IMG/VR virus record: IMGVR_UViG_2925891887_000001 | Origin: a virus | Taxonomy: Duplodnaviria; Heunggongvirae; Uroviricota; Caudoviricetes | Direction: 5' to 3' (one strand) | Length of the DNA: 64,000 nucleotides | Part shown: positions 4,333 through 47,173 of the stretch, in pieces | Layout of the letters: every line of letters begins with the position of its first letter | Position numbering within the stretch: position 1 is the first letter of the stretch | Notes under the pieces: model-generated | Databases searched by the model: none | Seen by the model: the letters and a program-made list of their open reading frames with translations, nothing else | What the model was told of the DNA's origin: nothing | Program-made: the position numbers and the translations under genes

Positions 4333-5000
4333 TGACCAAAAAGTTTGAAATCGTATATCGCGACCCGGCAGATCTTATTCCCTATGAGATGAATGCCAAA
4401 AAGCATGATGAACAGCAGATCCGAGATCTGGCCGCAGCCATTAAAAAGCGCGGATTTGACCAGCCAATTACGGTCGATAAGAACGACGTAATTATTACTG
4501 GCCACGGCCGCCGTGAGGCTGCAATTTTTGCTGGACTTGAGCGCGTACCGGTTATTGTTCGCGATGATCTCAGTGATGACGAGGTTCGTGCGAAGCGCCT
4601 TGAAGATAACCGACTTGCCAGCATTGATTACGATGCAATTAAGCTACAGAAAGAGCTTGAGTCGCTTGTTCTGGACGATATCGAGGTTTTCGGCTTTGAA
4701 GAGCGTGAGTTGAATGTTCTCGTTGGCAGTATGACAGAAGAAATGGACACCGACTCGCTAGTTATCGATCTTGGCGAAGAAACTAAACGACAGAAGGATG
4801 AACACACCGTGATCAGTCGTGAAGTTGCAGCGGAAGAAGTACGTGTTGTCGACGTATTGGGCTTTAAAACGCTCCCTGCTGGCTCTGCCATTGTTGTTGG
4901 TGATTTGCTTGCCCACATGGAAGAAATGACGGGAGAAAGCGGGGTAGACGCATTTGTGGCATATGCGGAGAAGATCTCTTCCGGGGAGATGGCTGCATGA
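4332..5000 (+). CDS. ParB-like nuclease domain protein (second copy)
   Basis: ParB N-terminal-like motif (ITGHGRREAAIFAGLERVPVIV); ATG overlaps upstream stop (TAATG) with AAGGAG upstream; track ORF begins 4299. Confidence 0.55.
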   Translation: MTKKFEIVYRDPADLIPYEMNAKKHDEQQIRDLAAAIKKRGFDQPITVDKNDVIITGHGRREAAIFAGLERVPVIVRDDLSDDEVRAKRLEDNRLASIDYDAIKLQKELESLVLDDIEVFGFEERELNVLVGSMTEEMDTDSLVIDLGEETKRQKDEHTVISREVAAEEVRVVDVLGFKTLPAGSAIVVGDLLAHMEEMTGESGVDAFVAYAEKISSGEMAA

Positions 5001-7882: not shown

Positions 7883-9138
7883 TGGCAATCCCGTCCTCGC
7901 TCAGTCTTGTGCAACTGCATTCTGGACAGATGAAAGTCTTCCAGTCTCCGCATCGATTTAAAGTTGTTTGTGCTGGTCGACGCTGGGGAAAATCCCGGTT
8001 GTCGATCTCCACTATTATTCGTGCGGCGGCAAAGGAAAAAAAGCAAAGGGTCTGGTATGTCGCTCCTACTTACCAGATGGCTCGCCAGATTTTGTGGGAC
8101 GATCTACAGGAAGTTCTGCCTCGTAAGTGGGTTAGGAAAAAGAACGACACCACGATGACAATCGTGTTGAAGAACGGTTCGGAGATCGCCCTCAAAGGTG
8201 CTGATAAGCCTGACACTCTGCGCGGCGTAGCGTTGCATTTTGTAGTGCTTGATGAATTTCAGGATATGAAGGCTGACACCTGGTACAAGGTGTTACGACC
8301 TACTCTTTCATCGACACGCGGCGGTGCACTGATCATTGGTACGCCAAAAGGCTTCTCGGAATTTCACAAACTGTGGACTATAGGCCAGAACGTAGAGCTG
8401 CAAAGAAAGGGACAGTGGAAGAGCTGGCAGTTTGTAACTGCCGATTCTCCGTTTGTGCCTACGGCGGAAATTGAAGCTGCTAAGAACGATATGGACCCCA
8501 AATCGTTCGCTCAGGAGTACCTGGCCAGCTTTGAGAACATGTCCGGGCGCGTTTACTACCCGTTCGATCGTAACGTGCATGTAAAACCGCTTCAGTTCAA
8601 CCCTCGGTTGCCTATATGGGTAGGGCAGGACTTCAACATTGACCCGATGTCTTCAGTAATTTTGCAACCTCAGCCAAATGGTGAGCTATGGGCAATTGAT
8701 GAATTGGTGCTCTTTTCCTCTAACACGGCAGAAGTTTGTGATGAGCTTGAGAGACGCTTCTGGCGCTGGAAATCACAGGTAACGGTATTTCCAGATCCGG
8801 CAGGTGCTTATCGCCAACATGCTCGTGGGGAGTCTGACGTAGACATATTCAAAGAGAAGGGATTCTTACGTGTCGATTATTCGAAAAAGCACCCGCCAAT
8901 TGCGGATCGTGTTAATGCTGTTAACCGAATGCTGATGTCCGCATCTGGAGATATCCGGCTGTATATCGATCCGAAGTGCAAGCATTTGATTGATTCACTG
9001 GAAAAAGTCATCTACAAGCCTGGAACACGAGATATGGATAAGACAGGTGGCATTGAGCATAGTGCAGACGCATTGGGCTATCCAGTACATCGTAGGTATC
9101 CAGTCAAAAACCGTGTTATTCTTGGTGGTTCTCGATAG
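7882..9138 (+). CDS. Terminase large subunit
   Basis: Walker A VVCAGRRWGKS, Walker B-like VLDEFQDM, C-terminal nuclease-like region; 418 aa. Confidence 0.85.
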   Translation: MAIPSSLSLVQLHSGQMKVFQSPHRFKVVCAGRRWGKSRLSISTIIRAAAKEKKQRVWYVAPTYQMARQILWDDLQEVLPRKWVRKKNDTTMTIVLKNGSEIALKGADKPDTLRGVALHFVVLDEFQDMKADTWYKVLRPTLSSTRGGALIIGTPKGFSEFHKLWTIGQNVELQRKGQWKSWQFVTADSPFVPTAEIEAAKNDMDPKSFAQEYLASFENMSGRVYYPFDRNVHVKPLQFNPRLPIWVGQDFNIDPMSSVILQPQPNGELWAIDELVLFSSNTAEVCDELERRFWRWKSQVTVFPDPAGAYRQHARGESDVDIFKEKGFLRVDYSKKHPPIADRVNAVNRMLMSASGDIRLYIDPKCKHLIDSLEKVIYKPGTRDMDKTGGIEHSADALGYPVHRRYPVKNRVILGGSR

Positions 9139-25568: not shown

Positions 25569-25585
25569 ACAAGGATTTTTTGAAC

Positions 25586-28500
25586 ATGGAACAGTTCAAG
25601 AAGAAAAAGCTACCGCTGTTTATTGCCGGTGCGGGTGGTAAAAAAAGCAGCAAAAGCTCTAGTCGTACACCGGTTGAAGCCGACGATACCGTAAATTCTC
25701 GTGCAATGGCCGCTATCCTCGATCTTCTTGGGGAAGGGGTAATTGGCGGCTTAGTAAATGGCGCAAGATCTATTTTTATCGACGATCTGCCGATTGTAAA
25801 TGAAGACGGTTCCTCCAACTTCAGCGGAATCACATGGGATTTTCGCGACGGTTCACAAGACCAGACTCCAATGTCTGGCTTTGATTTCGTTGAAACGCCT
25901 AAATCCGTCAATATCCAGTTAAAAAAAACACATTATGTAACGGTTTCAATCGATAACGATGAAGCTGATCGGGTTCGTGTCATCATGAAGTTTCCTTCTT
26001 TGCGAAGCATAGATAAAAAAACTGGTGACACGAACGGTACGACTGTTGAGTACAAGTTCCAGATAGCAAATGGCGACTCAACATTTGTAGATGTGGTCGC
26101 GGAAGGTGAAAAAAGCGTTGGCATTAAGCTAACAGCAAAGAAGACCGGCGTTTATTACCGTAGCTACGAGCTGAAGCTGCCTAAGCCTGGACGCGCATAC
26201 AAGGTTCGTGTAGTCCGTATTACCGATGATAACAGTAGCCAGTATCTCTATAACGATACATGGGTGGATTCAATCGGGGAAATTGTCGATACACCGATGA
26301 ACTATCCAAACTCTGTTTTGGTTGGATTGAAGGTAAACTCTGAGCAATTCGGCAGCACCATGCCATCTCGCTCTTATCTGGTGCGTGGCCTAAAAATTCG
26401 AGTACCTTCAAACTATAACGAGTCCAGTAACACTTACGCTGGGGTATGGGATGGCACTTTTAAGCTGTTGTCTTCTTCGAACCCCGCGTGGATTCTCTTT
26501 GATTTGCTGACCAATGCTCGATATGGCCTTGGTCAGTATGTGTCGGAATCTATGATTGACCTTGGCCAGTTGTACCAGATTGGTCGATATTGTGACGAAG
26601 AGGTCGATGATGGCTTTGGTGGCAAAGAGAAACGCTTTGCAATCAATACGCAGATCACCAGTCGACAGGACGCATACCGGCTAATTCAGGATATTGCCGG
26701 AGCATTCCGCGGCATGGTGTTTTGGGCTGGTGGGATGGTTAACATCATGCAGGATAGCCCATCAGATCCGGTAATGATGTTTACCAACTCTAACGTCAAA
26801 GATGGATTGTTTACCTATAAAGGTTCTGCGCGTAAAGATCGCCCATCCGTTGCGCTCGTAACCTACAACAACAAGGAGGACGGTTATAAGCAAAACATCG
26901 AGTACGTCGAAGATCAGGACGCAATGCGCCGTTATGGTGAGCGTAAAACAGAAGTCGTAGCATTTGGCTGTACAAGCCGAGGGCAGGCTCACCGAGTTGG
27001 TTTGTGGCTTTTATATACCGCCAGAATGGAGTCGGATGTAATTACATTTACTGCCGGCTTAGACGCGTCATTTCTGATGCCTGGTGAAACCGTTCTGATT
27101 CAGAACAAATATCGCGCAGGCAAACGTAACTCAGGTCGAATTGTGGCGTTTACCAAAAACAGCGTCACACTCGATGCGCCTGTGTCGTTAGCCAAAGGCG
27201 GCTGCTTTATTCGAATACTGAATCAGGAAGGCAAAATCGTTGAACGCGATGTTCTTGAAACTGGCGAAAATATAACAAAAGTTACGTTTTCAAAAGCCCT
27301 GTCTTCGGCTGAAACGCCTGTTTTGAACGGCGTCTGGACTATTACAGAACCAGACCTCGAACCTATGCGCGTTCGCATCGTTAACATCGCGCAGGGGGAA
27401 ACGCCGGGTAGCTTTGACATCACCGCTGTTGAGAACAATCCGTCTAAATATGAGGCAATCGACAATGGTGCAACGCTGATCCCACAGAATACGACGGTAT
27501 TGGACCCAACTTACTCCAAGCCATCTAATCTGCAAATCACTGAAGGGACTTATCTCTCAAGCCCGGGCAACCTGTCAGTAAAACTGACTGCAACATGGGA
27601 AGGGAAATCTCCAGAGTATTGGATCAGTTGGCGACGTTCTGATGAAAACAATGTATCGAACTGGCAATCGGCGCGTGTAACCGAAGAGCAATACGAAATC
27701 GTTAATGTCGCGGAGAATGGACGCTACGACTTCCAGCTGTATGCGGTTTCATTCAACGGTAAAAAAACAGAGATTATCAGTACCGTTTATCAGGTGTTGG
27801 GCACAATGACACCGCCGGATGCCCCAACGTCATTAACGGCCGTTGGAGACTATCGTAATGTGATACTGAATTGGGTTAATCCAGATTCGGTAGACCTTGA
27901 TCACATTAATGTTTACGCATCCCAGACCAACAATCTGGATACGGCGAAACTGATCGCAGAGTCTGCAAGCACCACCTTTACACATGCTGGTCTTGGGGAT
28001 AGCGAAACGTGGTATTACTGGGTTCGAGCATCGAACAAGCGAGGTATGTTAAGTCCTCCGAACTCAAACTTGGGTACAGAGGCGACAACTCGCGATGTAC
28101 TGTCGTTCCTGACTGGCAAAATTACATCTTCCGAGCTTGGTCAGGCTCTGCTTGAGGACATCAACAGCAAAGCCTCTCAAGAAGCAGTTGACGAGTTAAA
28201 TGAGCATATCAACCAGAGCGTCGAATCTTTGGAGGGGGCGGTAAACGACGTTAAGGAAGATATAGCTGAATTAGATAAGCAGTTCAGCGATAACCTCGCG
28301 GATTTTGAAATAAAATTCAACGAGCGTAGCGATGCTTTGGAGAACGCACAAACCGAGCTTAAAGGTGAGGTTTCGGCAACGATCGACAAGGTCAATGAAG
28401 CGTTTGAAAAAATTGATGCTACTGATGCTGCAATTGTTGAAATCGAAAACACCGTATCTGAACACGATAAAGCTCTCGCTAATACAGTCGAGGCAATAAA

Positions 28501-30313
28501 GGCTGCAAGAGATGAAGCGGCGGCTCTTATTGCTAAGGAAAGCGAGGCTCGTGTTGAAGGCGATGCTGCAAACGCTAAACAACTGGAAGTGTTGCAGTCA
28601 ACGGTAGAGGAAAGCTCCGCTGCCGTTGAAGAAATGAAAAAGACGGTTGCAGAGGTCGATCGTGCCAGTGCAGAACTGACTACGAACATTGAAGCGTTAG
28701 CTAAAACAAATATTGACCTGGCTCTTCGTCAAGATGAAGACCAGCACAAGCAGATGGTCAATAACGCGAAGATCGCAACAACACAGAAAACCTTTGCTGA
28801 TGATATGTCCGCAATGGCCACGAAGGTTGAGGAAATTCGCGTAGAAATTGGCGAAGACATTAAGGCCAGTATTCTGGAAGAGTCCACCGCTCGTGCCGAT
28901 GGCGATGAAGCGTTGGCAAAGCGTGTCACTCAGCTGCAATCTAAGTTTGAAGGAGATATCAGCGCGGCGATTAGTACAGAGCAGGAGGCTCGTACATCTG
29001 CCGATGAAGCTCTGACGACACAAATCACTCAGCTTGAGTCGAAAGTAAGCAACGATATCGTCGCAGCTATTAAGGAAGAGCAAGAAGCCCGAGCAACGGA
29101 AGATTCGGCTCTGGCAAGCCAGATCACCCAACTTCAGGCAAAAGTTGATGATGATATTTCTGCTGCAATACGCAGTGAGCAGGAGGCCCGAGCAAGCGGG
29201 GACTCTGCGTTAGCCAAACAAATAAACCAGCTTCAGTCAAAGGTTGACGGTGATATATCCGCTGCCATCACTCAGGAGCAGGAGGCCAGAGCAAGTGCTG
29301 ACCAGGCGCTCTCACGAGAAATTAACAGCCTGCGAGCACAAACCGGAACTGATATTGCCGCAGCGGTTGCTGTAGAGACAAAAGCAAGGACTGATGCCGA
29401 TAGTGCATTGTCTACCCAGATTACGTCTCTTACAGCAAAAGCTAATGATCTCAAGGCGTCTCTTGCCAGAGAAACAACGGCTCGTGCAGATGGTGATACC
29501 GCTTTAACAAAAGAGGTTTCAAGTTTAAAAGCACAGACAGCGAAAGATATTAGTGCGGCCGTTGCAGTTGAAACGCAGGCTCGAACTGATGCTGACTCGG
29601 CGTTGTCGTCTCAGATCACCAAGCTGACCTCTCAATACAAAGAGGATATTAAAGCGGCTGTAGCAACCGAAACGAAAACGCGTACAGAGCAAGATGCTGC
29701 ATTGGCGACTCAAATCACAAACTTAGAGTCTCAAACGGCAGCCAACATTTCCGCGGCGGTCACAACTGAAACGAAAGCGAGAACGCAGGCAGATAATGCT
29801 CTGAGTGGGCGAATCGATACTCTGAAAGCAGAGGTGAATGGAAATACCGCGACAATTCAACAGCAGGCAACAGCTATTGCTGATACCAACAAAAAAGTGT
29901 CAACCGCGTGGACGTTGAAAATGGAGACTTCAACGAGCGGAGGGCAGAAGTATGTTGCCGGTATTGCGCTTGGTATTGACACCACTGGGCTATCTCAGTT
30001 TTTGGTTCAGGCGGACAGGTTTGGTTTGGTCAACTCTGTTAACGGGAAGATCACAACGCCATTTGTTATCGAAAACAGTATCGCCTATATGAATGGAGCG
30101 TATATCAAGGATGGCACAATCACCAATGCAAAAGTAGGCGATCTGCAATCTACCAATTTTGTTAGCGGTAGATCTGGATGGCGGTTCGGCAAAAATGGAA
30201 CGCTTGAGATCAACGGTAATAGCGGCGGCAATGGGCGATTGGTTATAAATGGTCAGCGGATTGACGTTTATGACGATAACAACGTCCTACGAGTAAGAAT
30301 TGGCCGTCTGTGA
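25586..30313 (+). CDS. Tail tip / host specificity protein J (central fibre)
   Basis: gpJ-like N-terminus (GGKKSSKSSSRTPVEADDTVNSRAMAAILDLLGEGVIGG), FN3-like region, then about 9-10 tandem 33-aa repeats; track start 25580 is TTG, ATG at 25586. Confidence 0.9.
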   Translation: MEQFKKKKLPLFIAGAGGKKSSKSSSRTPVEADDTVNSRAMAAILDLLGEGVIGGLVNGARSIFIDDLPIVNEDGSSNFSGITWDFRDGSQDQTPMSGFDFVETPKSVNIQLKKTHYVTVSIDNDEADRVRVIMKFPSLRSIDKKTGDTNGTTVEYKFQIANGDSTFVDVVAEGEKSVGIKLTAKKTGVYYRSYELKLPKPGRAYKVRVVRITDDNSSQYLYNDTWVDSIGEIVDTPMNYPNSVLVGLKVNSEQFGSTMPSRSYLVRGLKIRVPSNYNESSNTYAGVWDGTFKLLSSSNPAWILFDLLTNARYGLGQYVSESMIDLGQLYQIGRYCDEEVDDGFGGKEKRFAINTQITSRQDAYRLIQDIAGAFRGMVFWAGGMVNIMQDSPSDPVMMFTNSNVKDGLFTYKGSARKDRPSVALVTYNNKEDGYKQNIEYVEDQDAMRRYGERKTEVVAFGCTSRGQAHRVGLWLLYTARMESDVITFTAGLDASFLMPGETVLIQNKYRAGKRNSGRIVAFTKNSVTLDAPVSLAKGGCFIRILNQEGKIVERDVLETGENITKVTFSKALSSAETPVLNGVWTITEPDLEPMRVRIVNIAQGETPGSFDITAVENNPSKYEAIDNGATLIPQNTTVLDPTYSKPSNLQITEGTYLSSPGNLSVKLTATWEGKSPEYWISWRRSDENNVSNWQSARVTEEQYEIVNVAENGRYDFQLYAVSFNGKKTEIISTVYQVLGTMTPPDAPTSLTAVGDYRNVILNWVNPDSVDLDHINVYASQTNNLDTAKLIAESASTTFTHAGLGDSETWYYWVRASNKRGMLSPPNSNLGTEATTRDVLSFLTGKITSSELGQALLEDINSKASQEAVDELNEHINQSVESLEGAVNDVKEDIAELDKQFSDNLADFEIKFNERSDALENAQTELKGEVSATIDKVNEAFEKIDATDAAIVEIENTVSEHDKALANTVEAIKAARDEAAALIAKESEARVEGDAANAKQLEVLQSTVEESSAAVEEMKKTVAEVDRASAELTTNIEALAKTNIDLALRQDEDQHKQMVNNAKIATTQKTFADDMSAMATKVEEIRVEIGEDIKASILEESTARADGDEALAKRVTQLQSKFEGDISAAISTEQEARTSADEALTTQITQLESKVSNDIVAAIKEEQEARATEDSALASQITQLQAKVDDDISAAIRSEQEARASGDSALAKQINQLQSKVDGDISAAITQEQEARASADQALSREINSLRAQTGTDIAAAVAVETKARTDADSALSTQITSLTAKANDLKASLARETTARADGDTALTKEVSSLKAQTAKDISAAVAVETQARTDADSALSSQITKLTSQYKEDIKAAVATETKTRTEQDAALATQITNLESQTAANISAAVTTETKARTQADNALSGRIDTLKAEVNGNTATIQQQATAIADTNKKVSTAWTLKMETSTSGGQKYVAGIALGIDTTGLSQFLVQADRFGLVNSVNGKITTPFVIENSIAYMNGAYIKDGTITNAKVGDLQSTNFVSGRSGWRFGKNGTLEINGNSGGNGRLVINGQRIDVYDDNNVLRVRIGRL
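28870..29830 (+). repeat. Tandem 99-bp (33-aa) coding repeats inside gene J
   Basis: Repeated unit DISAAIxxEQEARxxADxALxxQITQLxSKVxx, about 9-10 copies. Confidence 0.8.
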
Positions 30314-30406: not shown

Positions 30407-33400
30407 ATGTGGTACAGGGAAGGTACTATCACATTTACACAGGGCAGCAATACTCTGGTTGGGGCAGGGACAGCCTGGAACGTAACAGCTAATGGTGTGT
30501 TGCCGGGGATGATCGTCATTGGCCCCGACAATAAGCTGTATGAGATCAAGCGCGTAACCAGTGATACGAACATTGTTCTCTCAGAACCTTATACCGGCGA
30601 AACTCAGTCTGAAGTTCCGTGCCGAATCATTACGACCTATGAAGGCGACTTAACACAGTTTAGCGCGCGCTTTACTGCGCTAATGTCGCGTATGTCGGCT
30701 GATTCCAAGTCCATACGCAGTTGGTTGACTGCGCTGGATGAGGTGACAATCGAGCGTGAAGACGGTACAGAAGTGACCGTTAAGCCGCTAATGCAGATCG
30801 TCAACGAGCACAACGAAAACGTTGAGTGGTATAAAAATAACACTGACGCGATTGATGCTGCTGGCGACAAAGCTCGTGAGGCGGCGGCCAGTGCTGCCGC
30901 AGCAGCAAAAAGCGCCAATGCCGCTGGAGAAAAAGCCTCTCAAGCGTCTCAAAGTGCATCCGCTGCGGCATCCTCACAAAGTGCCGCAAGTGCGAGTGCA
31001 ACTGCTGCGAAAAAATCTGAAACGAATGCTGCAGCGTCACAAAAATCTGCAGCCACTTCTGCATCCACCGCGACCACGAAGGCGTCAGAAGCTGCCACCT
31101 CAGCCCGGGATGCGGCGGCCTCAAAAGAGGCAGCGAAATCATCAGAAACGAGCGCAGCCTCGAGCGCCAGTAATGCCGCTTCCTCGGCAACGGCGGCAGG
31201 AAATTCCGCGAAGGCGGCAAAAACGTCCGAGACGAACGCCAGGTCTTCTGAAACGGCAGCGGGACAGAGCGCCTCGGCTGCGGCAGGCTCAAAAACAGCG
31301 GCTGCGTCGTCTGCCAGTGCCGCGTCAACAAGTGCCGGGCAGGCCTCAGCCAGTGCCACCGCCGCCGGAAAATCGGCAGAAAGTGCCGCATCGTCTGCTT
31401 CAACTGCCACAACGAAGGCTGGCCAAGCCACTGAACAGGCCAGCGCAGCAGCGAGGTCTGCTTCCGCAGCGAAGACATCCGAAACGAACGCGAAAGCGTC
31501 GGAAACCCGTGCAGAATCCTCAAAAACGGCAGCCGCATCGTCCGCCAGTTCGGCGGCGTCATCGGCATCATCGGCGTCTGCTTCAAAAGATGAGGCGACC
31601 AGACAGGCGTCAGCAGCGAAGGGCAGCGCCACGACGGCATCCACGAAAGCAACAGAGGCGGCAGGCAGTGCGACGGCAGCATCTCAGAGCAAAACTGCTG
31701 CTGAATCCGCTGCGACCCGTGCGGAAGCTGCTGCTGATCGTGCTGAAGAGATTGCCGGTGCAGTTGCGATGGAAGACGCAAGCCTTACAACTAAAGGTGT
31801 TGTGAAACTTAGCAGTGCTGTCGACAGCACCAGTGAATCGCTGGCCGCAACGCCAAAAGCAGTTAAAGCAGCCAATGACAATGCGAATAGCAGGGTGCCA
31901 TCTAACCGAAAAGTTAACGGTAAAGCACTGACTGCGGATATCAAATTAACGCCGAAAGATATTGGTACTTTAAATTCAGTAACGATGTCTTTCTCTGGCG
32001 GGGCAGGGTGGTTCAAACTGGCTACGGTTACCATGCCACAAGCGAGTTCCATCGTTTACATCGCATTGATTGGTGGCGCTGGTTACAACGTCGGCTCCCC
32101 ACATCAGGCAGGCATTTCAGAACTGGTTCTACGAGCAGGCAATGGAAACCCCAAAGGGATTACAGGTGCTTTGTGGAAGCGTACAGCTGTCGGATTAACG
32201 AATTTCGCCTGGATCAACACATCCGGCGATACATATGATATTTACGTTGAGATTGGCAATTATGCGACTCGTGTAAATATCCATTGGGATTGTACTGCAA
32301 ATGCGACAGTTTCTATTTATACCTCGCCAACATATTCAGCGAGTAAGCCTTCCAGCGTTACCGATGGTGTTGTTTATACGATGTATAGCACACATCAGAA
32401 ACCGACGCCGTTAGATATTGGAGCACTGCCAACAACCGGAGGAACAGTTTCAGGTCCGTTGTCTGTTACAGGTGGATTAACTGGTTCATTGAATGGTAAT
32501 GCAAGTACAGCCACGAAATTGCAGACGGCAAGATCTATCGGTGGAGTTGTTTTCGACGGTTCTGCAAATATTAACCTTCCAGGTGTAAACACTACGGGTA
32601 ATCAGAACACCACTGGTAATGCTGCAACTGCTACAAAACTTCAGACTGCAAGAAAAATATCCGGTGTTCCATTTGATGGTTCTACTGATATCACTTTAAC
32701 CGCTGCGCATGTTGCCGCTTTCGCAAGAAGGGCAACAGGGTCATATGCGGATGCTGATGGTGGCGTGCCGTGGAATGCTGAATCTGGTGCTTACAATGTA
32801 ACTAGAACAGGCGACACCTATATTCTTGCCAACTTTTATACCGGTGTAGGTAGTTGCCGGACCCTGCAGATGAAGGCGCATTACAGAAATGGAGGTCTGT
32901 TCTACCGTTCCTCAAGAGATGGCTATGGTTTTGAAAGTGGTTGGGAGCAGGTTTACACGACTGGATTTATGCCTCAGCCGGCTGATATAAACGCGCCAAC
33001 CGCTGCCGCTGGATGGTTAAATAGTGGTAACGGAACGGCATTTACGACTGCTCAATTTATAACTTGGCTAAATAATCAGGGGGCATTTACAAACAAACAT
33101 TGGATCGCACGGTGCTCATGGACTTACGCCAACAATAATTATATAGACGACACTGGTTGCGGTAGGATCGATCTATCTGGTTCCGTGATTGAGGTGTTTA
33201 GTAATAAGGCAACAAGCCACTACACTATTCGTGTTACAACGACAACAACATCGGGTCATGGTGGTGTTAACAATGCGGAATTTATTTATGTGTACAATGG
33301 AAGTGATTATGCACCAGGCTGGCGTCGTTCTTATAACACTAGAAACAAACCAACAGCTTCTGATGTAGGAGCATTACCGCTTTCAGGTGGCACATTATCT

Positions 33401-34705
33401 GGAGGGTTAACATCTTCTGGTGAGATCATTTCAAAATATGCAAATGGTTTCCGCATTGCTTACGGTAAGTTTGGGTTCTTTATCCGTAATGATGGGGTGA
33501 ACACATATTTCCTGCTAACAGCATCAGGAGACACATTAGGTTCATGGAACGGTTTGCGACCTATTACAATTAATAATACCAGCGGTGCTGTATCAATTGG
33601 TAATGGACTAAATGTGACTGGTGGCGTAAATGGTAGTTTGAACGGTAATGCTTCAACAGCTACGAAGTTGCAAACAGCGAGAAACATCAATGGTGTTAAG
33701 TTTGATGGTTCAGGCGATATCAATATTAATACATTGGTATCTCGTGGCCGAGTTACGGCGTTAAGCGGCTCTACTCAAGGCACTGCTGGCATTCAAATGT
33801 ATGAGGCGTACAACAATAGCTACCCGACCACGTATGGCAACGTATTGCACATGAAAGGTGCGAGTGCTGCTGGTGAGGGCGAGTTGCTTATTGGCTGGAG
33901 TGGTACGAGCGGTGCACATGCGCCAGTTTTCATTCGCTCACGAAGAGATAACACAGGTGCAGCATGGTCAGCGTGGGCGCAGGTATATACCGCTAAGGAT
34001 TCAATCCCTGGTGTGAATACAACTGGTAATCAGAACACTACTGGTAATGCCGCAACCGCCACAAAATTGCAGACAGCAAGGAAAATTGCTGGTGTGGCGT
34101 TTGATGGCTCTGCCGATATAACTTTGACTGCGGCTAACCTTAATGCTTACACGAAAACAGAGGTAGCAAACCTTCTAAGTTCCTATGCAAGCAGATCATC
34201 ACTGACAGGCTATAGTGGCAACCTGGATATTGTTGCTGAAACACTGGTTGTCAAATCAGGCGGTAGTGGAGGGTTTGCTATATGGGATATTGGCACAACT
34301 ACTAGCGGTGCCAATATGTACATTGATCCAAACCCAGGTATCAATACAGTTTGGCGTTCAACGTCTTCAAGGCGCTATAAAAAGGATATTGAAACATTAC
34401 AAGATCGATATGCTGATGAACTTTTGTCATTAAGACCTGTTTGGTATCGTTCAATTTGTCGAGGTGACCGAAAGGATTGGGGGTATTACGGCCTTATTGC
34501 TGAAGAGGTTGGTGAGATTGCCCCGCAATATGTCCATTGGCGTGAACCAACAAATAATGATTCTCCAGAAGATATTTCCTCAAATGGTATGGTCGCTGAA
34601 GGAGTGATGTATGAGCGTTTGGTTGTACCACTCATTTATCATATTCAGCAATTGACCAAAAGGGTTGAGGAGCTTGAAACGAAGTTAAATTCACCTAAAG
34701 AATAA
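30407..34705 (+). CDS. Side tail fibre protein with C-terminal intramolecular chaperone (peptidase S74-like) domain
   Basis: Stf-like Ala/Ser/Thr low-complexity region (KTSETNAKASE...), three copies of NGNASTATKLQTAR-x-I-x-GV-x-FDGS, and C-terminal chaperone-like segment (SRRYKKDIETLQDRYADELLSLRPVWYR). Confidence 0.85.
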   Translation: MWYREGTITFTQGSNTLVGAGTAWNVTANGVLPGMIVIGPDNKLYEIKRVTSDTNIVLSEPYTGETQSEVPCRIITTYEGDLTQFSARFTALMSRMSADSKSIRSWLTALDEVTIEREDGTEVTVKPLMQIVNEHNENVEWYKNNTDAIDAAGDKAREAAASAAAAAKSANAAGEKASQASQSASAAASSQSAASASATAAKKSETNAAASQKSAATSASTATTKASEAATSARDAAASKEAAKSSETSAASSASNAASSATAAGNSAKAAKTSETNARSSETAAGQSASAAAGSKTAAASSASAASTSAGQASASATAAGKSAESAASSASTATTKAGQATEQASAAARSASAAKTSETNAKASETRAESSKTAAASSASSAASSASSASASKDEATRQASAAKGSATTASTKATEAAGSATAASQSKTAAESAATRAEAAADRAEEIAGAVAMEDASLTTKGVVKLSSAVDSTSESLAATPKAVKAANDNANSRVPSNRKVNGKALTADIKLTPKDIGTLNSVTMSFSGGAGWFKLATVTMPQASSIVYIALIGGAGYNVGSPHQAGISELVLRAGNGNPKGITGALWKRTAVGLTNFAWINTSGDTYDIYVEIGNYATRVNIHWDCTANATVSIYTSPTYSASKPSSVTDGVVYTMYSTHQKPTPLDIGALPTTGGTVSGPLSVTGGLTGSLNGNASTATKLQTARSIGGVVFDGSANINLPGVNTTGNQNTTGNAATATKLQTARKISGVPFDGSTDITLTAAHVAAFARRATGSYADADGGVPWNAESGAYNVTRTGDTYILANFYTGVGSCRTLQMKAHYRNGGLFYRSSRDGYGFESGWEQVYTTGFMPQPADINAPTAAAGWLNSGNGTAFTTAQFITWLNNQGAFTNKHWIARCSWTYANNNYIDDTGCGRIDLSGSVIEVFSNKATSHYTIRVTTTTTSGHGGVNNAEFIYVYNGSDYAPGWRRSYNTRNKPTASDVGALPLSGGTLSGGLTSSGEIISKYANGFRIAYGKFGFFIRNDGVNTYFLLTASGDTLGSWNGLRPITINNTSGAVSIGNGLNVTGGVNGSLNGNASTATKLQTARNINGVKFDGSGDININTLVSRGRVTALSGSTQGTAGIQMYEAYNNSYPTTYGNVLHMKGASAAGEGELLIGWSGTSGAHAPVFIRSRRDNTGAAWSAWAQVYTAKDSIPGVNTTGNQNTTGNAATATKLQTARKIAGVAFDGSADITLTAANLNAYTKTEVANLLSSYASRSSLTGYSGNLDIVAETLVVKSGGSGGFAIWDIGTTTSGANMYIDPNPGINTVWRSTSSRRYKKDIETLQDRYADELLSLRPVWYRSICRGDRKDWGYYGLIAEEVGEIAPQYVHWREPTNNDSPEDISSNGMVAEGVMYERLVVPLIYHIQQLTKRVEELETKLNSPKE
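32582..32708 (+). repeat. ~125-bp direct repeat within tail fibre gene (copy 1)
   Basis: ggtgtaaacactacgggtaatcagaacaccactggtaatgctgc... recurs with few mismatches at about 34010-34136. Confidence 0.8.
34010..34136 (+). repeat. ~125-bp direct repeat within tail fibre gene (copy 2)
   Basis: Near-identical to 32582-32708; encodes GVNTTGNQNTTGNAATATKLQTARKI-GV-FDGS-DITLTAA. Confidence 0.8.
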
Positions 34706-34765
34706 ACAACTTCAATCGGGGCTGGAGCTAAACCAGCCCCTGCTTAAAAGTATAAGGATATATTT

Positions 34766-35020
34766 ATGAGCTATGGTGCACAGGTTTGGTCGCCATCAAG
34801 ACAGGAGATGGTCAATGCGTTGGCCCCTGTTTATTACCTCGATTATTTTACTCCCTCTGGTTCAGGAAGTAGAACATATGAGGTTGAGGCGGGATTGGGA
34901 ATCGACTATTACATAATGGACGTAACCAATGGAAAGTACACAAGTCTTACGGTTTCTGGAAATACCATTTCGTGGTCTGGAGCTAGTGGTAATTTAAACA
35001 TATTGGTTTTTCAAAAATAA
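34766..35020 (+). CDS. Hypothetical protein (tail fibre accessory?)
   Basis: 84-aa ORF immediately downstream of tail fibre gene. Confidence 0.35.
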   Translation: MSYGAQVWSPSRQEMVNALAPVYYLDYFTPSGSGSRTYEVEAGLGIDYYIMDVTNGKYTSLTVSGNTISWSGASGNLNILVFQK

Positions 35021-35628
35021 TGTACGGAAGCAAGATATATCGATCTGACGGGAAGGTCTGGATGTCTCCTTCTTTGTCTCCTATCGTTTTTCAGAGAAAG
35101 CAGGTTGTTTCTTTGTCCGGCGGGACAGAGTTTAACACCAAAATATCTCCAGATCGTTCACCGATTATTTTTGTTGCCTATTCGAAAGCTGTTTCATTAA
35201 TAGCCAACAGAATAGTGCGTAACAACCAGGTGATTTACAGTTTCGGAGGTCAGGGTAGCGACTCTAGTGCCACGATATACGTATTTTCGAAAGGTATAGC
35301 CAAAAAAGAAACTTGGGGCATGAGTTTTTTCAATGCACAAGGGGAGGAAATCTATAATACGGCAAATATCCCACTTTCATTTACCTTTCTTAATAATACG
35401 GAGTGGAACAGCTCTGGAGGGCATGTTTTTGATTACCCTCCAGCGATAATCCCAACATATGCGAATGTGTTCGCTGTTCCAGTACCGGGCGGAGCCATGA
35501 CAATGGTTTATGGATATGCGGCATATGGAAATACTGTTAGCTCGATATTCGTAAACCAACTTAATGGCGGCCATAGTTTTAGCGTAAATGGCAGAGTACC
35601 GGTAATAAATAGAAATCTGTATAACTGA
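35020..35628 (+). CDS. Hypothetical protein (tail fibre accessory?)
   Basis: 202-aa ORF coupled to upstream ORF (ATG overlaps stop). Confidence 0.35.
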   Translation: MYGSKIYRSDGKVWMSPSLSPIVFQRKQVVSLSGGTEFNTKISPDRSPIIFVAYSKAVSLIANRIVRNNQVIYSFGGQGSDSSATIYVFSKGIAKKETWGMSFFNAQGEEIYNTANIPLSFTFLNNTEWNSSGGHVFDYPPAIIPTYANVFAVPVPGGAMTMVYGYAAYGNTVSSIFVNQLNGGHSFSVNGRVPVINRNLYN

Positions 35629-35635
35629 TGAGTAG

Positions 35636-35869
35636 ATGATGAAAAGATTATTTCTAACAATAGCTGTTGTTCTCTCTCTTACTGGCTGCCAGAAATTGCC
35701 GACACCTATATGTTACGGTGAGGCTATCATTGGTGGACAGGAGACAGTCATACCCATATATGCTGTTAAAAAAGTGAACGACTATACCTTATACAAAGCG
35801 GGTAGCATCTATAACTGGCGATGGGTAGGAGTAGGTGCTTTCTCATCAGTCCGTTGCAATGCTGAATGA
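35636..35869 (+). CDS. Small lipoprotein, Cor/Llp-like superinfection-exclusion candidate
   Basis: 77 aa; signal peptide plus lipobox (MMKRLFLTIAVVLSLTGC); sits just downstream of receptor-binding genes. Confidence 0.5.
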   Translation: MMKRLFLTIAVVLSLTGCQKLPTPICYGEAIIGGQETVIPIYAVKKVNDYTLYKAGSIYNWRWVGVGAFSSVRCNAE

Positions 35870-35950
35870 TAGGTAAGTACACACCTACAACAAAAGGGTG
35901 AAATGTGATATAAATCCGCCATCCCGATTTGACTTTTCATGGAGGAAAAC

Positions 35951-36274
35951 ATGTCGAACGAGATGGCGGGCGTTACAACAGAGCAAGTTGAGCGTATTGC
36001 CGCGATCGTTGCTCGGGAGGTTGTTGGCAAATTAGGTAAAGAGCTACGTGAAGAAATTGGCCAGGAGGTCAACGATCAGCTGAAAACCTACTTTGGTGAT
36101 ATGACCCCGGCGCAACATAGTATTCAACACTCCAACCTGGACAAACTCCTTAACCGGTTAGATTCCATCTCAAGTGGGTTCTTTGGCGGCATTGTTTCTA
36201 AAATAACGTCGTTCATTATTACCGCACTGCTTTTGGGGTTAGCCGCGTATGGCGTAAAAAATGGACTGCAATAA
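35951..36274 (+). CDS. Holin-like small membrane protein (putative)
   Basis: ATG after GGAGG; one C-terminal transmembrane segment (ITSFIITALLLGLAAYGV); directly upstream of lysis genes. Confidence 0.35.
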   Translation: MSNEMAGVTTEQVERIAAIVAREVVGKLGKELREEIGQEVNDQLKTYFGDMTPAQHSIQHSNLDKLLNRLDSISSGFFGGIVSKITSFIITALLLGLAAYGVKNGLQ

Positions 36275-36287
36275 CAGGAGATCAAGG

Positions 36288-36980
36288 ATGAAGACTCCGA
36301 GAGGTATTCGTAATAATAACCCCGGTAATCTTGATAAAGGATCACCGTGGCAAGGTCTGGTTGCGAATCCAGACGAACCGCGCTTTTGCACGTTTAAAGA
36401 CCCTGTTTGGGGGATTCGTGCACTGGCGGTGACTCTAATTACCTACCACGACAAGCGTCGCGCAAAAGACGGCTCAAGTATCGATACCATTCGTGAAGTT
36501 ATTGAACGTTGGGCACCGCCGAATGAAAACAACACTGACGCCTACATTAATGAGGTGTCTAAAGCCGTTGGTGTAACCGCAGACATGATTATCGATCTGC
36601 ATGATTACGACATTCTTCGACCTTTGGTTGAGGCAATCATTCGCCATGAGAATGGGCGAGGTCCGCTAAAAACGCTGAACACCTGGTATGCGGCAGAAGT
36701 TATTGAGGAAGGTCTGCGTCGAGCTGGCGTCGTTAAGCCGGTGAAAACCGTGAAGGCTGTTCCTGTAACTAAAGAAACAGCAGGCGCAACTGTTACAGCA
36801 GGTATTGGTCTGGCGCAGCTGGCCGATGTTATGCCGCAGGTTTCCGCTGCTATGGATAAAGCACAAGGTCATATCTCTAGCGGGGATACAGTACGCATCA
36901 TCTTCGGTATTGCCACTATTGTTGTGGCTGGATTTATCGCCTGGTCGCAGGTAAGAAGACACCAGAAAGGGATGGTCTAA
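36288..36980 (+). CDS. Lysis cassette protein, endolysin candidate with C-terminal membrane anchor
   Basis: Sits between holin-like gene and Rz/Rz1; conserved-looking N-terminal motif RNNNPGNLDKGSPWQG; C-terminal TM (IIFGIATIVVAGFIAW). Enzymatic class not resolved. Confidence 0.4.
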   Translation: MKTPRGIRNNNPGNLDKGSPWQGLVANPDEPRFCTFKDPVWGIRALAVTLITYHDKRRAKDGSSIDTIREVIERWAPPNENNTDAYINEVSKAVGVTADMIIDLHDYDILRPLVEAIIRHENGRGPLKTLNTWYAAEVIEEGLRRAGVVKPVKTVKAVPVTKETAGATVTAGIGLAQLADVMPQVSAAMDKAQGHISSGDTVRIIFGIATIVVAGFIAWSQVRRHQKGMV

Positions 36981-36981
36981 T

Positions 36982-37233
36982 ATGCTAGGCAGCCTGATGA
37001 CAAAGCTAAAAGTTGCTTTGATTACGCTGGCTGCCGTTCTTTTCGTTCTGGTCGGCGCTTACACGATGGGCGGAAATGCGGCGCGACGAGCAATGGAAGA
37101 GAAGGCAAAACAGGAAGACAGAAAACGACTTCAAAGCACAGTGGATGTCAAAAATGAAACGGTTAATGAAGTGCGGCAAAAAGATGCCTCTGGTGTTCAT
37201 CGCGAGCTGTTTGATAAATGGGTGCGTGATTAA
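36982..37233 (+). CDS. Rz-like inner-membrane spanin (i-spanin)
   Basis: N-terminal TM (LKVALITLAAVLFVLVGAY) then charged coiled-coil region; 83 aa. Confidence 0.6.
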   Translation: MLGSLMTKLKVALITLAAVLFVLVGAYTMGGNAARRAMEEKAKQEDRKRLQSTVDVKNETVNEVRQKDASGVHRELFDKWVRD

Positions 37234-37381
37234 GACGCAGGCTCCAGGCGTGCTATTCTGCGATGCTGCAAATCCTATCTATGTGAGTAGAGAGGATTTT
37301 ATGACTGAGGAAACGGAGCGACAGTTGCTTATCCACAATACGATAGGTGAAAGGCTGTGTGAGTGGGGGCACCTGAACTGA
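37145..37381 (+). CDS. Rz1-like outer-membrane lipoprotein spanin (o-spanin), overlapping Rz in +1 frame
   Basis: Alternate-frame ORF begins inside Rz and extends past its stop; signal peptide with lipobox (MKRLMKCGKKMPLVFIASC); exact start among several in-frame ATGs unresolved. Confidence 0.55.
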   Translation: MSKMKRLMKCGKKMPLVFIASCLINGCVIKTQAPGVLFCDAANPIYVSREDFMTEETERQLLIHNTIGERLCEWGHLN

Positions 37382-37605
37382 GTCGATGATTGATGAGTGG
37401 TCTCAGTTTACCTTTTATCCTAAAGATGGCATCTTCACTCATATACACGCCTGTTCACTCAAGCTCATGTTGAATCATTTAGTAATTTGATGTAGATTTA
37501 TTAGGCATCCACGTAAGTGGGCACATACAGGCTACGCATCCTCGTAGCCTTCAACCCCGAGAGGGGTGCCGCAATGACACTTGTGTTAACGGCTAAGGTG
37601 GATAT

Positions 37606-38025
37606 ATGCTAAATTATCATGACAATACGCGTTCTATGCAGACGATCCGCACCAATACTGCGGTCATCGACAGCTTTCCTATGCGTATTCACAACAGTGA
37701 AGACGCAGTAGAAGTGCGACGTATGTTGTGCCGTGAATCAGCTAACCGCCAGCACTTCATCGTCACTTTTAAGAGCGATGTGGCGCGTGCCGAAAAGATC
37801 TCTAATTCTACGTCACTGGTTAAACCGTTGGCCGAGGTTGTCGCTAACGGTAAACGAACCTCTTTTGTTTTAGATGTTGCTGAACAATATCCTGACTTGA
37901 AGTGTTTAGATCGTGATATTTCTTCACGAATCAAACAAGTTGTAGAGTCTTTTATGAAGAAATTCTGTAAAATCGATGATATGGAACCATCAACGGCACA
38001 GAATACTTCATGGCACCATCTCTAA
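37606..38025 (+). CDS. Hypothetical protein
   Basis: 139-aa ORF from track. Confidence 0.35.
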   Translation: MLNYHDNTRSMQTIRTNTAVIDSFPMRIHNSEDAVEVRRMLCRESANRQHFIVTFKSDVARAEKISNSTSLVKPLAEVVANGKRTSFVLDVAEQYPDLKCLDRDISSRIKQVVESFMKKFCKIDDMEPSTAQNTSWHHL

Positions 38026-38783
38026 TTGGTCAGGCGAACAGATTAATCCCTGAAATAGAAGACTACAGCAAGGTCTTGTCTGAAATGCCGAGAGCGACGA
38101 GAATTATCGCTCTCGGTGAGTTCTATTTTATCTCCCGAGGTTTCGATCTAATTCGATTTACCGAATACGAGCTTGTTGATTCGGCCTATGAACGCTGTAT
38201 TGTTGGCGAGTGTCTTGAGTCATGTGATCCTGATTACCAAGAGCAGGAAGTTAAGCGACTCAAACGTGCTGGTTACACACCTCTTGAGATAGGAGCAGAA
38301 ATTGAATCCTACAAGTTGCATGTGGGGCAGCCAGTCCAAACAGTCTTCCGCGTGGCCTACTGCGAGTTTCCAATCAAGGATAAATCTGGAGTAAAAGTCA
38401 GCGCCAAGCAGATTAGAGGGGTTTTTACTCATGCTGATTATATGGGATTAGGCATCGCAAGTTTTGCTTACCTTTATCTCGTAGATAAGTATCAGTACTT
38501 GGTTTGCGATACGTTACAGACGGTAAAAGGCGCAACTCTTTGGGCTGTGAGTATGCGCAAACATGGACTGGTCGAAATTTACGATACGAAGAACGAAAAT
38601 TTTATAGAGGAATTGGGTGAGGATGCCTGTGGCGTAAGTGGTTTTATTCCGTGGGATATCGGTAAGTCTGACGGAGGCCAGATGCGAAGACGTGAAGAGT
38701 GGGGGACTAATAAAATCAATCTCACCCCAGGTGCTTGTACTCATATAGTGAACATTCTGACTAAACGATCTATGAATCAATAA
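38010..38783 (+). CDS. Hypothetical protein
   Basis: 257-aa ORF from track; followed by intrinsic terminator. Confidence 0.35.
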   Translation: MAPSLIGQANRLIPEIEDYSKVLSEMPRATRIIALGEFYFISRGFDLIRFTEYELVDSAYERCIVGECLESCDPDYQEQEVKRLKRAGYTPLEIGAEIESYKLHVGQPVQTVFRVAYCEFPIKDKSGVKVSAKQIRGVFTHADYMGLGIASFAYLYLVDKYQYLVCDTLQTVKGATLWAVSMRKHGLVEIYDTKNENFIEELGEDACGVSGFIPWDIGKSDGGQMRRREEWGTNKINLTPGACTHIVNILTKRSMNQ

Positions 38784-40011: not shown

Positions 40012-41718
40012 ATGGAATCGATAGAAGTATTTTTAAAAAATTTTTTGGACTCAGATCATCGGGTTGCTGTCATAAAAGGAAATTGGGGAGTAGGTAAAAC
40101 GCATTATTGGAATAGCTTTTATACTAAACATTCTAAAAAATTAGATTTTAATGCATATTCATATGTTTCTTTGTTTGGAATAAATTCTATTGGAGACATT
40201 AAAAAAGCTCTTTATCATTGTGCCACACCAATTAATGAAAAGAAATATAAAGAACTGATTTTATCTGAAACGGATCGAACTATGATTCGTTATAGAAATG
40301 GGTTTTGGGGATGGTTGAAATACAACTCCTTGTCAAAATTTATAATACATTTTGGAAAGAACGATTTTTTTGGGTTCAAAACTGATAATCTGCTGTCATC
40401 TCTTGAGTATAAATTTGTTAATAATTATTTGGTTTGCATTGATGATATTGAACGAAAAGGTAGTGCGCTAGAAATTAAAGAGATTATGGGGGTAATTGAT
40501 GAGTTGGCAAGAAGAAAAAATTGCAAGGTTGTTCTAATATTAAATGAAGATAACTTACATGAAGAAACTGCACAACAACAGTTTTTAGAGTATAGAGAAA
40601 AAATAATTGATGTGGAAATAAAATACGATCCCACGCCTGAGAAAAACTTAAGAAAAGTTTTTTATGAGACTGACCCTGATTTTCTTTTGTTAAAAAACCT
40701 AGCAAATGATTTAAACATCAAAAACATTAGAATATTAAATAAAATAAAATCATCTCTAGTTATATTTAGAGATGTGCTAAAGTTAGCAGAGGATAAGGTT
40801 AGAGAAAGTTTTATTAATAGATTGGTCTTATTTTCAGTGGTTTACTATTTTGGTGTTCCTAGCGTTGATTATGCTTCATTTAAGGAGTCAATCAAAAATA
40901 TACATGCATTCGACTATATGTTAGATGATAAAGATGAAAAGGAAGAAGTTAACTCTGTATATTCATTTGTTAATAGCCTTGATGTTATTTATGAACGAGC
41001 AGAAAGTGCTTTCGATGATGATATAGATTTTTACCTTAAGAACGGTTATGTTTCTTCTGAAAGCAATATTCTAAATATAATAAAAGAAAAAAATGAACAA
41101 TATAGAGATAATAGGGTTTTATGTGAGGTTTATAAAATTTGGGATGTTTTTAGAAACTCTTTTAAAGATAATGAATCAGAGTTTATTTTTCAAATTGAGC
41201 GCGTAATTAACGATAGTCTGTTGCGTATACCAATTGGACAGTTCGTAGGTTTAATAAATGTCCTAATTAAATTGGATAGAGATTGTAATAATATTATAGA
41301 GGCATATGCAGATGCTTTTGTTAATAAAGACAATGCGTATGCTACATTTAATTCTTTGCGAGTAGAGATCTTCGGAAATGAAGAATTAGGTTTCAGAATT
41401 GAAAAAAAATTGAAAGATAGAAATCCAGATGACTATAACTTAGATAAAATTATAAAAAAAATAGCTGGTGGAAGATTTAACCATAGTGATGTGAATATTC
41501 TTAACAGTTTTTCTAAAGATGATTACGTAAACTGGATATTATCCTGTGATCAGGATGCTTTGAATTTAGTAGAAGAGACTATGCTCAAGTTCAAGGGTAT
41601 GCAACACCCGACAGACGAACAGAAGAGCATCACTGATAAAGCAATAGAAGCTTTGGAGGAAGTTGCTTCAAAATCAACACTTAATAAGCTGCGTGTTAAT
41701 AAAATACTCAATCATTAA
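40012..41718 (+). CDS. KAP-family P-loop NTPase-like protein, low-GC cargo gene
   Basis: Walker A GNWGVGKT and Walker B LVCIDDIER about 120 aa later (KAP-like spacing); strongly AT-rich versus flanks; bracketed by hairpin 39962-39990 and palindrome 41728-41785. Confidence 0.55.
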   Translation: MESIEVFLKNFLDSDHRVAVIKGNWGVGKTHYWNSFYTKHSKKLDFNAYSYVSLFGINSIGDIKKALYHCATPINEKKYKELILSETDRTMIRYRNGFWGWLKYNSLSKFIIHFGKNDFFGFKTDNLLSSLEYKFVNNYLVCIDDIERKGSALEIKEIMGVIDELARRKNCKVVLILNEDNLHEETAQQQFLEYREKIIDVEIKYDPTPEKNLRKVFYETDPDFLLLKNLANDLNIKNIRILNKIKSSLVIFRDVLKLAEDKVRESFINRLVLFSVVYYFGVPSVDYASFKESIKNIHAFDYMLDDKDEKEEVNSVYSFVNSLDVIYERAESAFDDDIDFYLKNGYVSSESNILNIIKEKNEQYRDNRVLCEVYKIWDVFRNSFKDNESEFIFQIERVINDSLLRIPIGQFVGLINVLIKLDRDCNNIIEAYADAFVNKDNAYATFNSLRVEIFGNEELGFRIEKKLKDRNPDDYNLDKIIKKIAGGRFNHSDVNILNSFSKDDYVNWILSCDQDALNLVEETMLKFKGMQHPTDEQKSITDKAIEALEEVASKSTLNKLRVNKILNH

Positions 41719-46759: not shown

Positions 46760-47173
46760 ATGAGCAAAAAGAAGTTGATTTTAACAGGTGCTTTATTGTC
46801 GTTGTTTGCATTAGTTGGGTGTAAGCCTACAGACGAGAAGGCTATTACTCTGGGCCAACAGGCAATTGCGGATGATATGAAAGATCCCACGTCGGTGATG
46901 TTTAGGAAAGATAAGTTTGTCAGGACTGATCATGATGATGGGAGTGTGACAGGCTTTGTGTGTGGTGAATTAAACGCCAAAAATGGCTTTGGTGCATACG
47001 TGGGCTATCACTCATATGTTGTTGAACTCGAAATGAAGCCAAAGGGCATGTTTTCAAAAGGGGTGGTATACAAAATCCTATCGAAGTCGTTGGCACCTAA
47101 TGATCCTCATGATTTACAGCGTTATAAGCAGGTCTACAGAAAGATGTGCAACAGTGAGGCTGTAGCTCATTAA
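46760..47173 (+). CDS. Lipoprotein, hypothetical
   Basis: Signal peptide plus lipobox (LSLFALVGC); 137 aa. Confidence 0.5.
   Translation: MSKKKLILTGALLSLFALVGCKPTDEKAITLGQQAIADDMKDPTSVMFRKDKFVRTDHDDGSVTGFVCGELNAKNGFGAYVGYHSYVVELEMKPKGMFSKGVVYKILSKSLAPNDPHDLQRYKQVYRKMCNSEAVAH

Follow-up and report, generated by a model that had tools for sequence, protein, structure and literature searches.

A Cor-family exclusion lipoprotein gene at the edge of a mosaic cassette in an Escherichia coli SSU5-type phage-plasmid

The cor locus and its neighbourhood

The window (the whole stretch of DNA that was analysed, 64,000 nucleotides, IMG/VR record IMGVR_UViG_2925891887_000001) is an E. coli phage-plasmid of the SSU5/pHCM2 type. 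In PLSDB, 376 plasmids, including 211 from Escherichia, match its holin region, as do the phages Cyrano, PhiR41_1, SSU5 and CMS-2020a. The gene considered here, cor, is the last of a three-gene cassette (PHROG 557, PHROG 425, Cor); the whole 34700-36300 stretch recurs at about 99% identity in 71 plasmids, and of 5,426 complete E. coli genomes 67 carry the cassette, in every case on a plasmid. The features of the region are as follows.

25580-30313, + strand: J-like protein of the central tail tip, 1577 aa (annotated in Cyrano as 'tail host specificity protein J')
30407-34705, + strand: side tail fibre, 1432 aa, whose C-terminal part is an S74 intramolecular chaperone (Pfam Gp34_trimer, Peptidase_S74)
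32698-35872, + strand: mosaic module made up of the distal part of the fibre, both small cassette genes (84 aa and 202 aa) and cor (local blastn)
34766-35020, + strand: first cassette gene, 84 aa, PHROG 557 'outer membrane protein' (E 2.4e-24)
35020-35628, + strand: second cassette gene, 202 aa, PHROG 425 'membrane associated protein' (E 5.8e-49)
35636-35869, + strand: cor, Cor-family phage exclusion lipoprotein precursor, 77 aa (76 aa from the probable start at 35639)
35636-35686, + strand: predicted lipoprotein signal peptide of Cor, residues 1-17 (sequence reading plus hydropathy and lipobox scan)
35687-35866, + strand: mature Cor domain, 60 aa from Cys18 (predicted acylation), a predicted small beta-sheet with GG, AG and NWRWV motifs
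35939-37381, + strand: lysis cassette directly downstream of cor (PHROGs 5093, 873, 1026 and 1275; Cyrano and SSU5 annotations)
35951-36274, + strand: holin of the lysis cassette
36261-36980, + strand: endolysin (PHROG 873)
36982-37233, + strand: Rz i-spanin of the lysis cassette
within 37076-37381, + strand: embedded Rz1 o-spanin lipoprotein of the lysis cassette

The sequence-only reading of this DNA had placed a 77-aa ORF with a signal peptide and lipobox at 35636-35869 (+), following the tail fibre and accessory ORFs. The ORF exists exactly as described, and the genes for the J-like protein and the fibre, followed by two small ORFs, precede it. Its 77-residue translation is MMKRLFLTIAVVLSLTGC followed directly by QKLPTPICYGEAIIGGQETVIPIYAVKKVNDYTLYKAGSIYNWRWVGVGAFSSVRCNAE. 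A hydropathy and lipobox scan bears out the lipoprotein signal: the n-region MMKR carries two basic residues, the hydrophobic core LFLTIAVVLSL has 11 residues and a Kyte-Doolittle value of 2.84, and the lipobox L15-T16-G17 precedes Cys18 (L-T-G-C, residues 15-18). The +2 residue is Gln, which under the E. coli sorting rule directs a lipoprotein to the outer membrane. The mature part has 60 aa, and the Cys residues of the protein are at positions 18, 26 and 74. The Pfam model LPAM_1 gives a weak, sub-threshold match to a lipoprotein site over residues 2-19. When a simple rule was applied to the whole window, a lipoprotein-type N-terminus was found in 2 of the 179 first-Met ORFs of at least 50 aa; the other one, at 46760-47173 (137 aa, beginning MSKKKLILTGALLSLFALVGC), matches PHROG 2320, a family of unknown function.

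The true start of cor is probably the second ATG, at 35639, which gives a protein of 76 aa. This start is favoured because alignments to the family models and to all homologues start at residue 2, and because the sequence GAG lies 6 nt upstream of the second ATG. The 76-aa and 77-aa forms are both present in databases.

The two cassette genes upstream of cor have counterparts in other phages, the 84-aa protein corresponding to N15 gp22, T1 gp32 and SSU5_023, and the 202-aa protein (for which the PGAP start is 35062) to N15 gp23, T1 gp31 and SSU5_024. The smaller protein is 68% identical to SSU5_023 and 27-28% identical to its N15, phi80 and T1 counterparts; the larger is 74-76% identical to SSU5_024 and about 30% identical to the T1-like proteins. 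The order of the cassette, downstream of the tail genes, is common to N15, HK75, phi80, T1, ES18 and SSU5. A signal peptide and a transmembrane segment were looked for in both proteins and are absent (maximal 19-residue hydropathy of 0.54 and 1.38, respectively), and in spite of the PHROG labels both partners are predicted from their sequences to be non-membrane proteins. Both begin M-x-YG, like their N15 and T1 counterparts, and there are weak cross-matches between the small and large cassette proteins; the shared start and the cross-matches suggest that the two are paralogous.

Comparison with close relatives places the cassette within a mosaic module. In local blastn comparisons, identity to Cyrano is 98.6% up to position 32697 and resumes at 35868, while identity to CMS-2020a is 97.5% up to 33678 and resumes at 35873, so that in both comparisons the right edge of the module is the cor stop codon. 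Cyrano and CMS-2020a have about 98% DNA identity to the window across J, and the C-terminal 299 aa of the CMS-2020a J protein are 99% identical to those of the window, yet neither carries the cassette: in Cyrano the fibre gene leads directly to holin, and CMS-2020a has a different fibre of 1576 aa plus a 279-aa adhesin-like ORF. The cassette is therefore optional, and dispensable for this type of virion. The region between J and holin is a mosaic hotspot: SSU5 combines the cassette with a fibre and an adhesin there, the window with an S74-type fibre. The GC content is about 0.41 in the cassette versus 0.45-0.49 in its flanks. These alignments add a point specific to this element: the cassette is a mosaic unit that can be absent, and its right edge coincides with the cor stop.

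Several other features of the surrounding DNA were recorded. An Rfam scan of 33500-38500 gave no match. The fibre gene contains a GC-rich (0.55-0.61), Ala/Ser-rich low-complexity stretch at 30600-32000, and the J-like gene contains long Ala/Glu-rich coiled-coil repeats at 28200-29900; in both regions, numerous long but spurious ORFs arise in the remaining frames and on the complementary strand. The C-terminus of J was tried as an indicator of the receptor and dropped, since the 299-aa query matched more than 2,000 phages at about 30-35% identity. These matches are uninformative because they reflect coiled-coil repeats and a generic distal domain, and because J is unchanged in the relatives that lack the cassette. 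The endolysin (36261-36980) has a C-terminal hydrophobic segment at residues 213-231 and is called simply 'membrane protein' by PGAP in plasmid records. Anchoring in the membrane at the C-terminus would be unusual for an endolysin. Farther downstream, at 40012-41718 and beside a ParA partition gene, there is a 568-aa ORF for a KAP-family P-loop NTPase (Pfam PF07693; PHROG 4740, a family of unknown function). It lies in an AT-rich island (GC 0.28-0.32 versus about 0.46 around it) and looks like a horizontally acquired accessory gene, possibly with a role in defence.

Family membership and predicted fold

The protein is clearly a member of the Cor family by its profile matches, as the sequence-only reading had suggested in calling it Cor-like. 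It scores 80.7 bits against a cutoff of 31 with the NCBIfam equivalog NF047972 ('lamb_exclu_cor', phage exclusion lipoprotein Cor), residues 2-75 aligning to positions 1-77 of the 78 in the model, and it matches PHROG 1119 ('Cor superinfection exclusion protein') with an E value of 2.3e-30 over residues 2-76. Gene context and the identities to known homologues agree with these matches. Identity is 59% to SSU5 Cor, 58% to the Cor of Stx podophages, 47% to HK75 Cor, 42% to N15 gp24, phi80 Cor and ES18 gp32, and 28-34% to T1-like Cor proteins (28% to that of T1). A Pfam search returned only the sub-threshold lipoprotein site, the Cor family being absent from Pfam. The method of searching matters: a word-indexed protein search with the single sequence gave just 4 matches, and an alignment-based search was needed to recover the family, which then amounted to 364 clusters (at 90% identity) from Enterobacterales; many of these already bear the name Cor. 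The possibility that 35636-35869 is a chance ORF was ruled out by the match to NF047972 and by the profile search.

The residues that characterize the family are present. In an alignment of 115 Cor sequences, C18, C26, G56 and C74 are invariant, and G33, G34, A55, W61, W63, V64 and F69, each at least 90% conserved, are all found in the window protein. The lipobox Cys is kept in 115 of 115 aligned members, and none of the 115 has Asp at +2.

The gene is an ordinary one and is already annotated. An identical protein is present in NCBI and UniRef as 'phage exclusion lipoprotein Cor', on hundreds of contigs, and the RefSeq annotation of September 2026 gives the gene as 'cor: phage exclusion lipoprotein Cor'. 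At the same position most PLSDB gene tables have no feature, or 'hypothetical protein' or 'lipoprotein' (for example NZ_CP107145.1, 6930-7251), which argues that the gene name is recent. One 90%-identity cluster of a large protein collection that contains this Cor also has the unrelated product of the neighbouring 202-aa gene as its representative; such mixing is an artefact of the clustering that could lead automatic annotation astray.

Within the family, the alignment shows the window protein to be a member of a divergent subfamily. Positions 20, 22, 45, 50, 52 and 58, which are 85-99% conserved in the rest of the family, set it apart from the lambdoid Cor group, and the subfamily consists of the window protein, the SSU5-type and Stx-phage-type proteins, and a few metagenomic sequences. 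The nearest relatives outside the SSU5 type (58% identity) belong to Stx podophages, where the gene lies behind a fibre-adhesin pair and not behind J.

Given the position of cor, 81 nt upstream of the holin start, and the predicted outer-membrane location of its product, one might consider a role in lysis, as an o-spanin or as an accessory to holin and endolysin. PHROG 456, a spanin family, is also matched faintly (E 0.39). However, that match is confined to the signal peptide (residues 1-24), both members of an Rz/Rz1 pair are encoded downstream at 36982-37381 (PHROG 1026, E 5.7e-25; PHROG 1275, E 2.2e-25), and Cyrano and CMS-2020a have the same lysis cassette with no cor. With the strong matches to the Cor models added to this, a lysis function is extremely improbable.

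The fold of the protein was predicted with AlphaFold2 from the 115-sequence alignment. The model has a mean pLDDT of 87.3 (above 93 in the mature core); in it, a signal helix leads into a small beta domain of five strands. In BFVD, a library of predicted viral structures, the top match of the model is Dhillonvirus Cor, followed by T5-like phage lipoproteins, with TM-scores of 0.49-0.56. The best structural match overall is the FhuA-bound form of Llp. A Foldseek search of the PDB with the model gave nothing significant and did not retrieve Llp. The 60-aa mature domain is confidently predicted to adopt the T5 Llp fold, and a disulfide between Cys26 and Cys74 is probable.

The likeness to Llp does not extend to the sequence. 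The identity between Cor and T5 Llp (PDB 8A60 chain B, 7QJF) is 15% and not significant; in a sequence search of the PDB, the single Cor sequence had no match, and the Cor profile matched 8a60_B with an E value of 1.1, mostly over the signal peptide. The sequence-only reading had called the protein Cor/Llp-like. The Cor part of that description is upheld by the family models; the Llp part holds for the fold, in agreement with two recent reports (one of them PMC13164509), but not for the sequence family.

Timing of expression

The placement of cor argues for expression with the late genes. The gene lies between the tail genes and the lysis genes, in the position of a late operon, and its ATG follows the stop codon of the 202-aa gene by 7 nt. 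A consensus scan for promoters and terminators around cor found none adjacent to it, a result with which an internal or read-through promoter is compatible; two promoter-like matches were found in 34600-37600, both upstream of the two small ORFs, and these are fewer than in shuffled sequence. The element is specific in this respect: its cor has no detectable transcription signals of its own. The tight packing, the lack of an own promoter or terminator, and the position between tail and lysis genes favour the view that cor is made mainly with the late genes during lytic growth.

The layout of cor transcription varies among phages (extract coordinates: ES18 4501-4743, T1 29623-29850, N15 4389-4925, phi80 8187-8572). 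In N15, phi80 and HK75 there is a gap of about 110 nt before cor, and in N15 and phi80, where cor shares the strand of the tail genes, a strong terminator follows it; in T1 and ES18, cor is on the strand opposite to the tail genes and forms a separate unit. In SSU5-type elements cor is tightly packed, without gap or terminator.

These layouts bear on a second view of the gene, which corresponds to the 'carrier state' of the sequence-only reading. In this alternative, cor is mainly a lysogenic-conversion (moron) gene that the resident plasmid expresses constitutively and that protects the carrier cell from FhuA-dependent phages (T1, T5, phi80) and toxins, whatever receptor the phage-plasmid itself uses. 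Lysogens are reported to gain protection from FhuA-dependent phages through the Cor proteins of their prophages (Hernandez-Sanchez 2008 and Uc-Mass 2004, both quoted from a bioRxiv preprint). The dispensability of the cassette in relatives with the same J is as expected of an accessory gene, and the GC content of the cassette is slightly below that of its flanks. Moreover, the Cyrano plasmid is present at about 5.5 copies per cell (PMC9928086), so that weak read-through could yield some protein. On the other hand, the 7-nt gap leaves no space for a promoter where N15, phi80 and HK75 have their longer gaps and T1 and ES18 their opposite-strand units, and the two promoter-like matches, fewer than expected by chance, both precede the small ORFs. 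In addition, the carrier-state transcripts of Cyrano that rise above background include none from the J-to-spanin region (PMC9928086). A mainly lysogenic-conversion gene is, on balance, somewhat unlikely.

Expression of cor, and hence exclusion, in the carrier state was the weakest part of the sequence-only reading. Such expression is doubtful in view of the short gap, the absence of a promoter or terminator in the scan, the late-operon position and the silent late region of Cyrano; exclusion during plasmid carriage is nonetheless possible. The favoured role for cor is in lytic growth, by analogy with T1 Cor and T5 Llp.

Receptor, mechanism and comparison with known systems

The three-gene cassette has been described in a 2026 study of phage KanT1 (PMC13164509), and the gene family, the cassette, the link to FhuA and the Llp-like fold are all already in the literature. 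In that study the full cassette was present in 10 phages of the BASEL collection, 10 of 10 being FhuA users, and it has so far been found in FhuA-dependent phages only; one phage (Tempevirinae) that has Cor and the larger partner only uses BtuB. Citing Wietzorrek 2006, the same report lists T1, HK022, N15, ES18 and phi80 as all FhuA-dependent, and an AlphaFold3 model presented there docks Cor on the periplasmic face of FhuA. According to Uc-Mass 2004, as quoted in the bioRxiv preprint, Cor functionally inactivates FhuA; the preprint adds that the molecular mechanism of Cor itself is still unsolved. The sequence-only reading had proposed that the lipoprotein could indicate the receptor class, which is reasonable in light of the association of the full cassette with FhuA. 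Because the window carries the full cassette, FhuA is the most likely target of its Cor by analogy with these phages.

As a whole, the evidence is best explained, with good confidence, by a Cor-family superinfection-exclusion lipoprotein of an E. coli SSU5/pHCM2-type phage-plasmid that acts most probably against FhuA and is expressed mainly late. The export, lipidation and receptor steps of this model are drawn from the Cor family, Llp and lipoprotein biogenesis. After Sec-dependent export, the precursor would receive its lipid on Cys18 and be processed by signal peptidase II. The beta domain, probably stabilized by the Cys26-Cys74 bond, would then bind the periplasmic face of a TonB-dependent transporter, most probably FhuA, and the resulting change in the extracellular loops would leave phage receptor-binding proteins unable to attach. 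Made late, Cor would block superinfection and could spare released progeny from being wasted on cell debris.

A Cor-type exclusion lipoprotein need not act on FhuA, and its target might instead be another TonB-dependent transporter such as BtuB, or another receptor of SSU5-type virions. Cor-like and Llp-like lipoproteins of other phages do target other receptors: the BtuB-using Tempevirinae phage combines Cor with a PHROG 425 partner (PMC13164509), and Rtp45 blocks LptD. The six positions at which the divergent subfamily departs from an otherwise 85-99% conserved consensus fit such a shift in target, as do the 58%-identical relatives that lie behind a fibre-adhesin pair in Stx podophages. In these podophages the PHROG 557/425 pair is 3 kb from cor or occurs without it, and in 933W-like Stx phages the pair has no adjacent cor. 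For SSU5, the only receptor found cited is the LPS core, bound via adhesin gp22, and a literature search found no link between SSU5-type elements and FhuA, Cor or exclusion. Weighing against a different target are the restriction of the complete cassette to FhuA users so far (PMC13164509), a score 50 bits over the cutoff of an equivalog-level Cor model, and the FhuA-bound form of Llp as best structural match. We consider a target other than FhuA unlikely.

Since the same J is found in relatives without the cassette, J cannot be the cognate binder of FhuA. A further reading is more speculative: the two small partner proteins (84 aa and 202 aa) could act as receptor adaptors at the tail tip. In SSU5-type phage-plasmids the cassette might then be an optional, horizontally exchanged add-on, with the two small proteins adapting an unchanged J to a new protein receptor and the divergent Cor serving as the matching blocker, possibly of a receptor other than FhuA. 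In the BASEL study (PMC8594841), the locus downstream of J is described as a horizontally exchanged unit of receptor-binding protein and matching exclusion protein. In the window, searches with Pfam, PHROG and NCBIfam matched the neighbours of cor to PHROG 557 and PHROG 425 only, and to no receptor-binding-protein family. We regard this adaptor arrangement as a long shot. If it is correct, cassette-bearing and cassette-free virions would have different terminal receptors, with the cassette as a portable 'receptor plus its own lock' unit.

As a discovery cor matters little, its family, position and likely role being established. The complete cassette is of more use as a practical marker: for this lineage, present in about 1% of complete E. 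coli genomes, it predicts that FhuA is both used and blocked. Such a prediction is relevant to host range, to interference with therapeutic T1-like and T5-like phages, and to the sensitivity of carrier strains to colicin M and albomycin.

Among the closest known systems is that of Salmonella phage SSU5, whose SSU5_025 (annotated as Cor), like its copies in phage-plasmids of Enterobacter, Citrobacter and Salmonella, belongs to the same type of element. In SSU5 the same trio occupies the same position before holin, and DNA identity of about 76% is continuous over 34766-37340. The alleles are nonetheless distinct (identity of 59% for Cor, 68% for the 84-aa protein and 74-76% for the 202-aa protein), and SSU5 has the separate fibre adhesin gp22, which is absent from the window; the window allele is the E. 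coli one.

The Cor proteins of lambdoid and linear-plasmid phages (phi80 Cor, N15 gp24, HK022 and HK75 Cor, mEp167 Cor) share the length of 75-78 aa, the lipobox, the Cys pair and the GG, AG and NWRWV motifs, and their genes occupy the same place after the PHROG 557/425 genes downstream of the tail genes. The window protein is 42-47% identical to them and lacks the 3-residue insert that they have after the lipobox, and its gene lacks the intergenic gap and terminator. The window also differs in having a side fibre gene between J and the cassette, and lysis genes after it.

T1, other Drexlerviridae and Dhillonvirus encode Cor proteins of the same family in the same three-gene cassette. Because these phages are strictly lytic, Cor can evidently work in lytic growth. 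In T1, however, cor is on the opposite strand behind a terminator, and the Cor proteins of this group are 28-34% identical to that of the window.

Two further lipoproteins resemble Cor in position or fold. T5 Llp, which shares the predicted fold, is partnered with the receptor-binding protein pb5, whereas the partners of the window cor are the PHROG 557/425 pair. Rtp45 of phage Rtp, whose target is LptDE, is likewise a lipoprotein of the periplasm, its gene adjoins the receptor-binding locus downstream of J, and it likewise blocks the receptor of its own phage. It is absent from the structural matches of the Cor model, and both its target and its mechanism are different, the loops of LptD being displaced sterically rather than by allostery.
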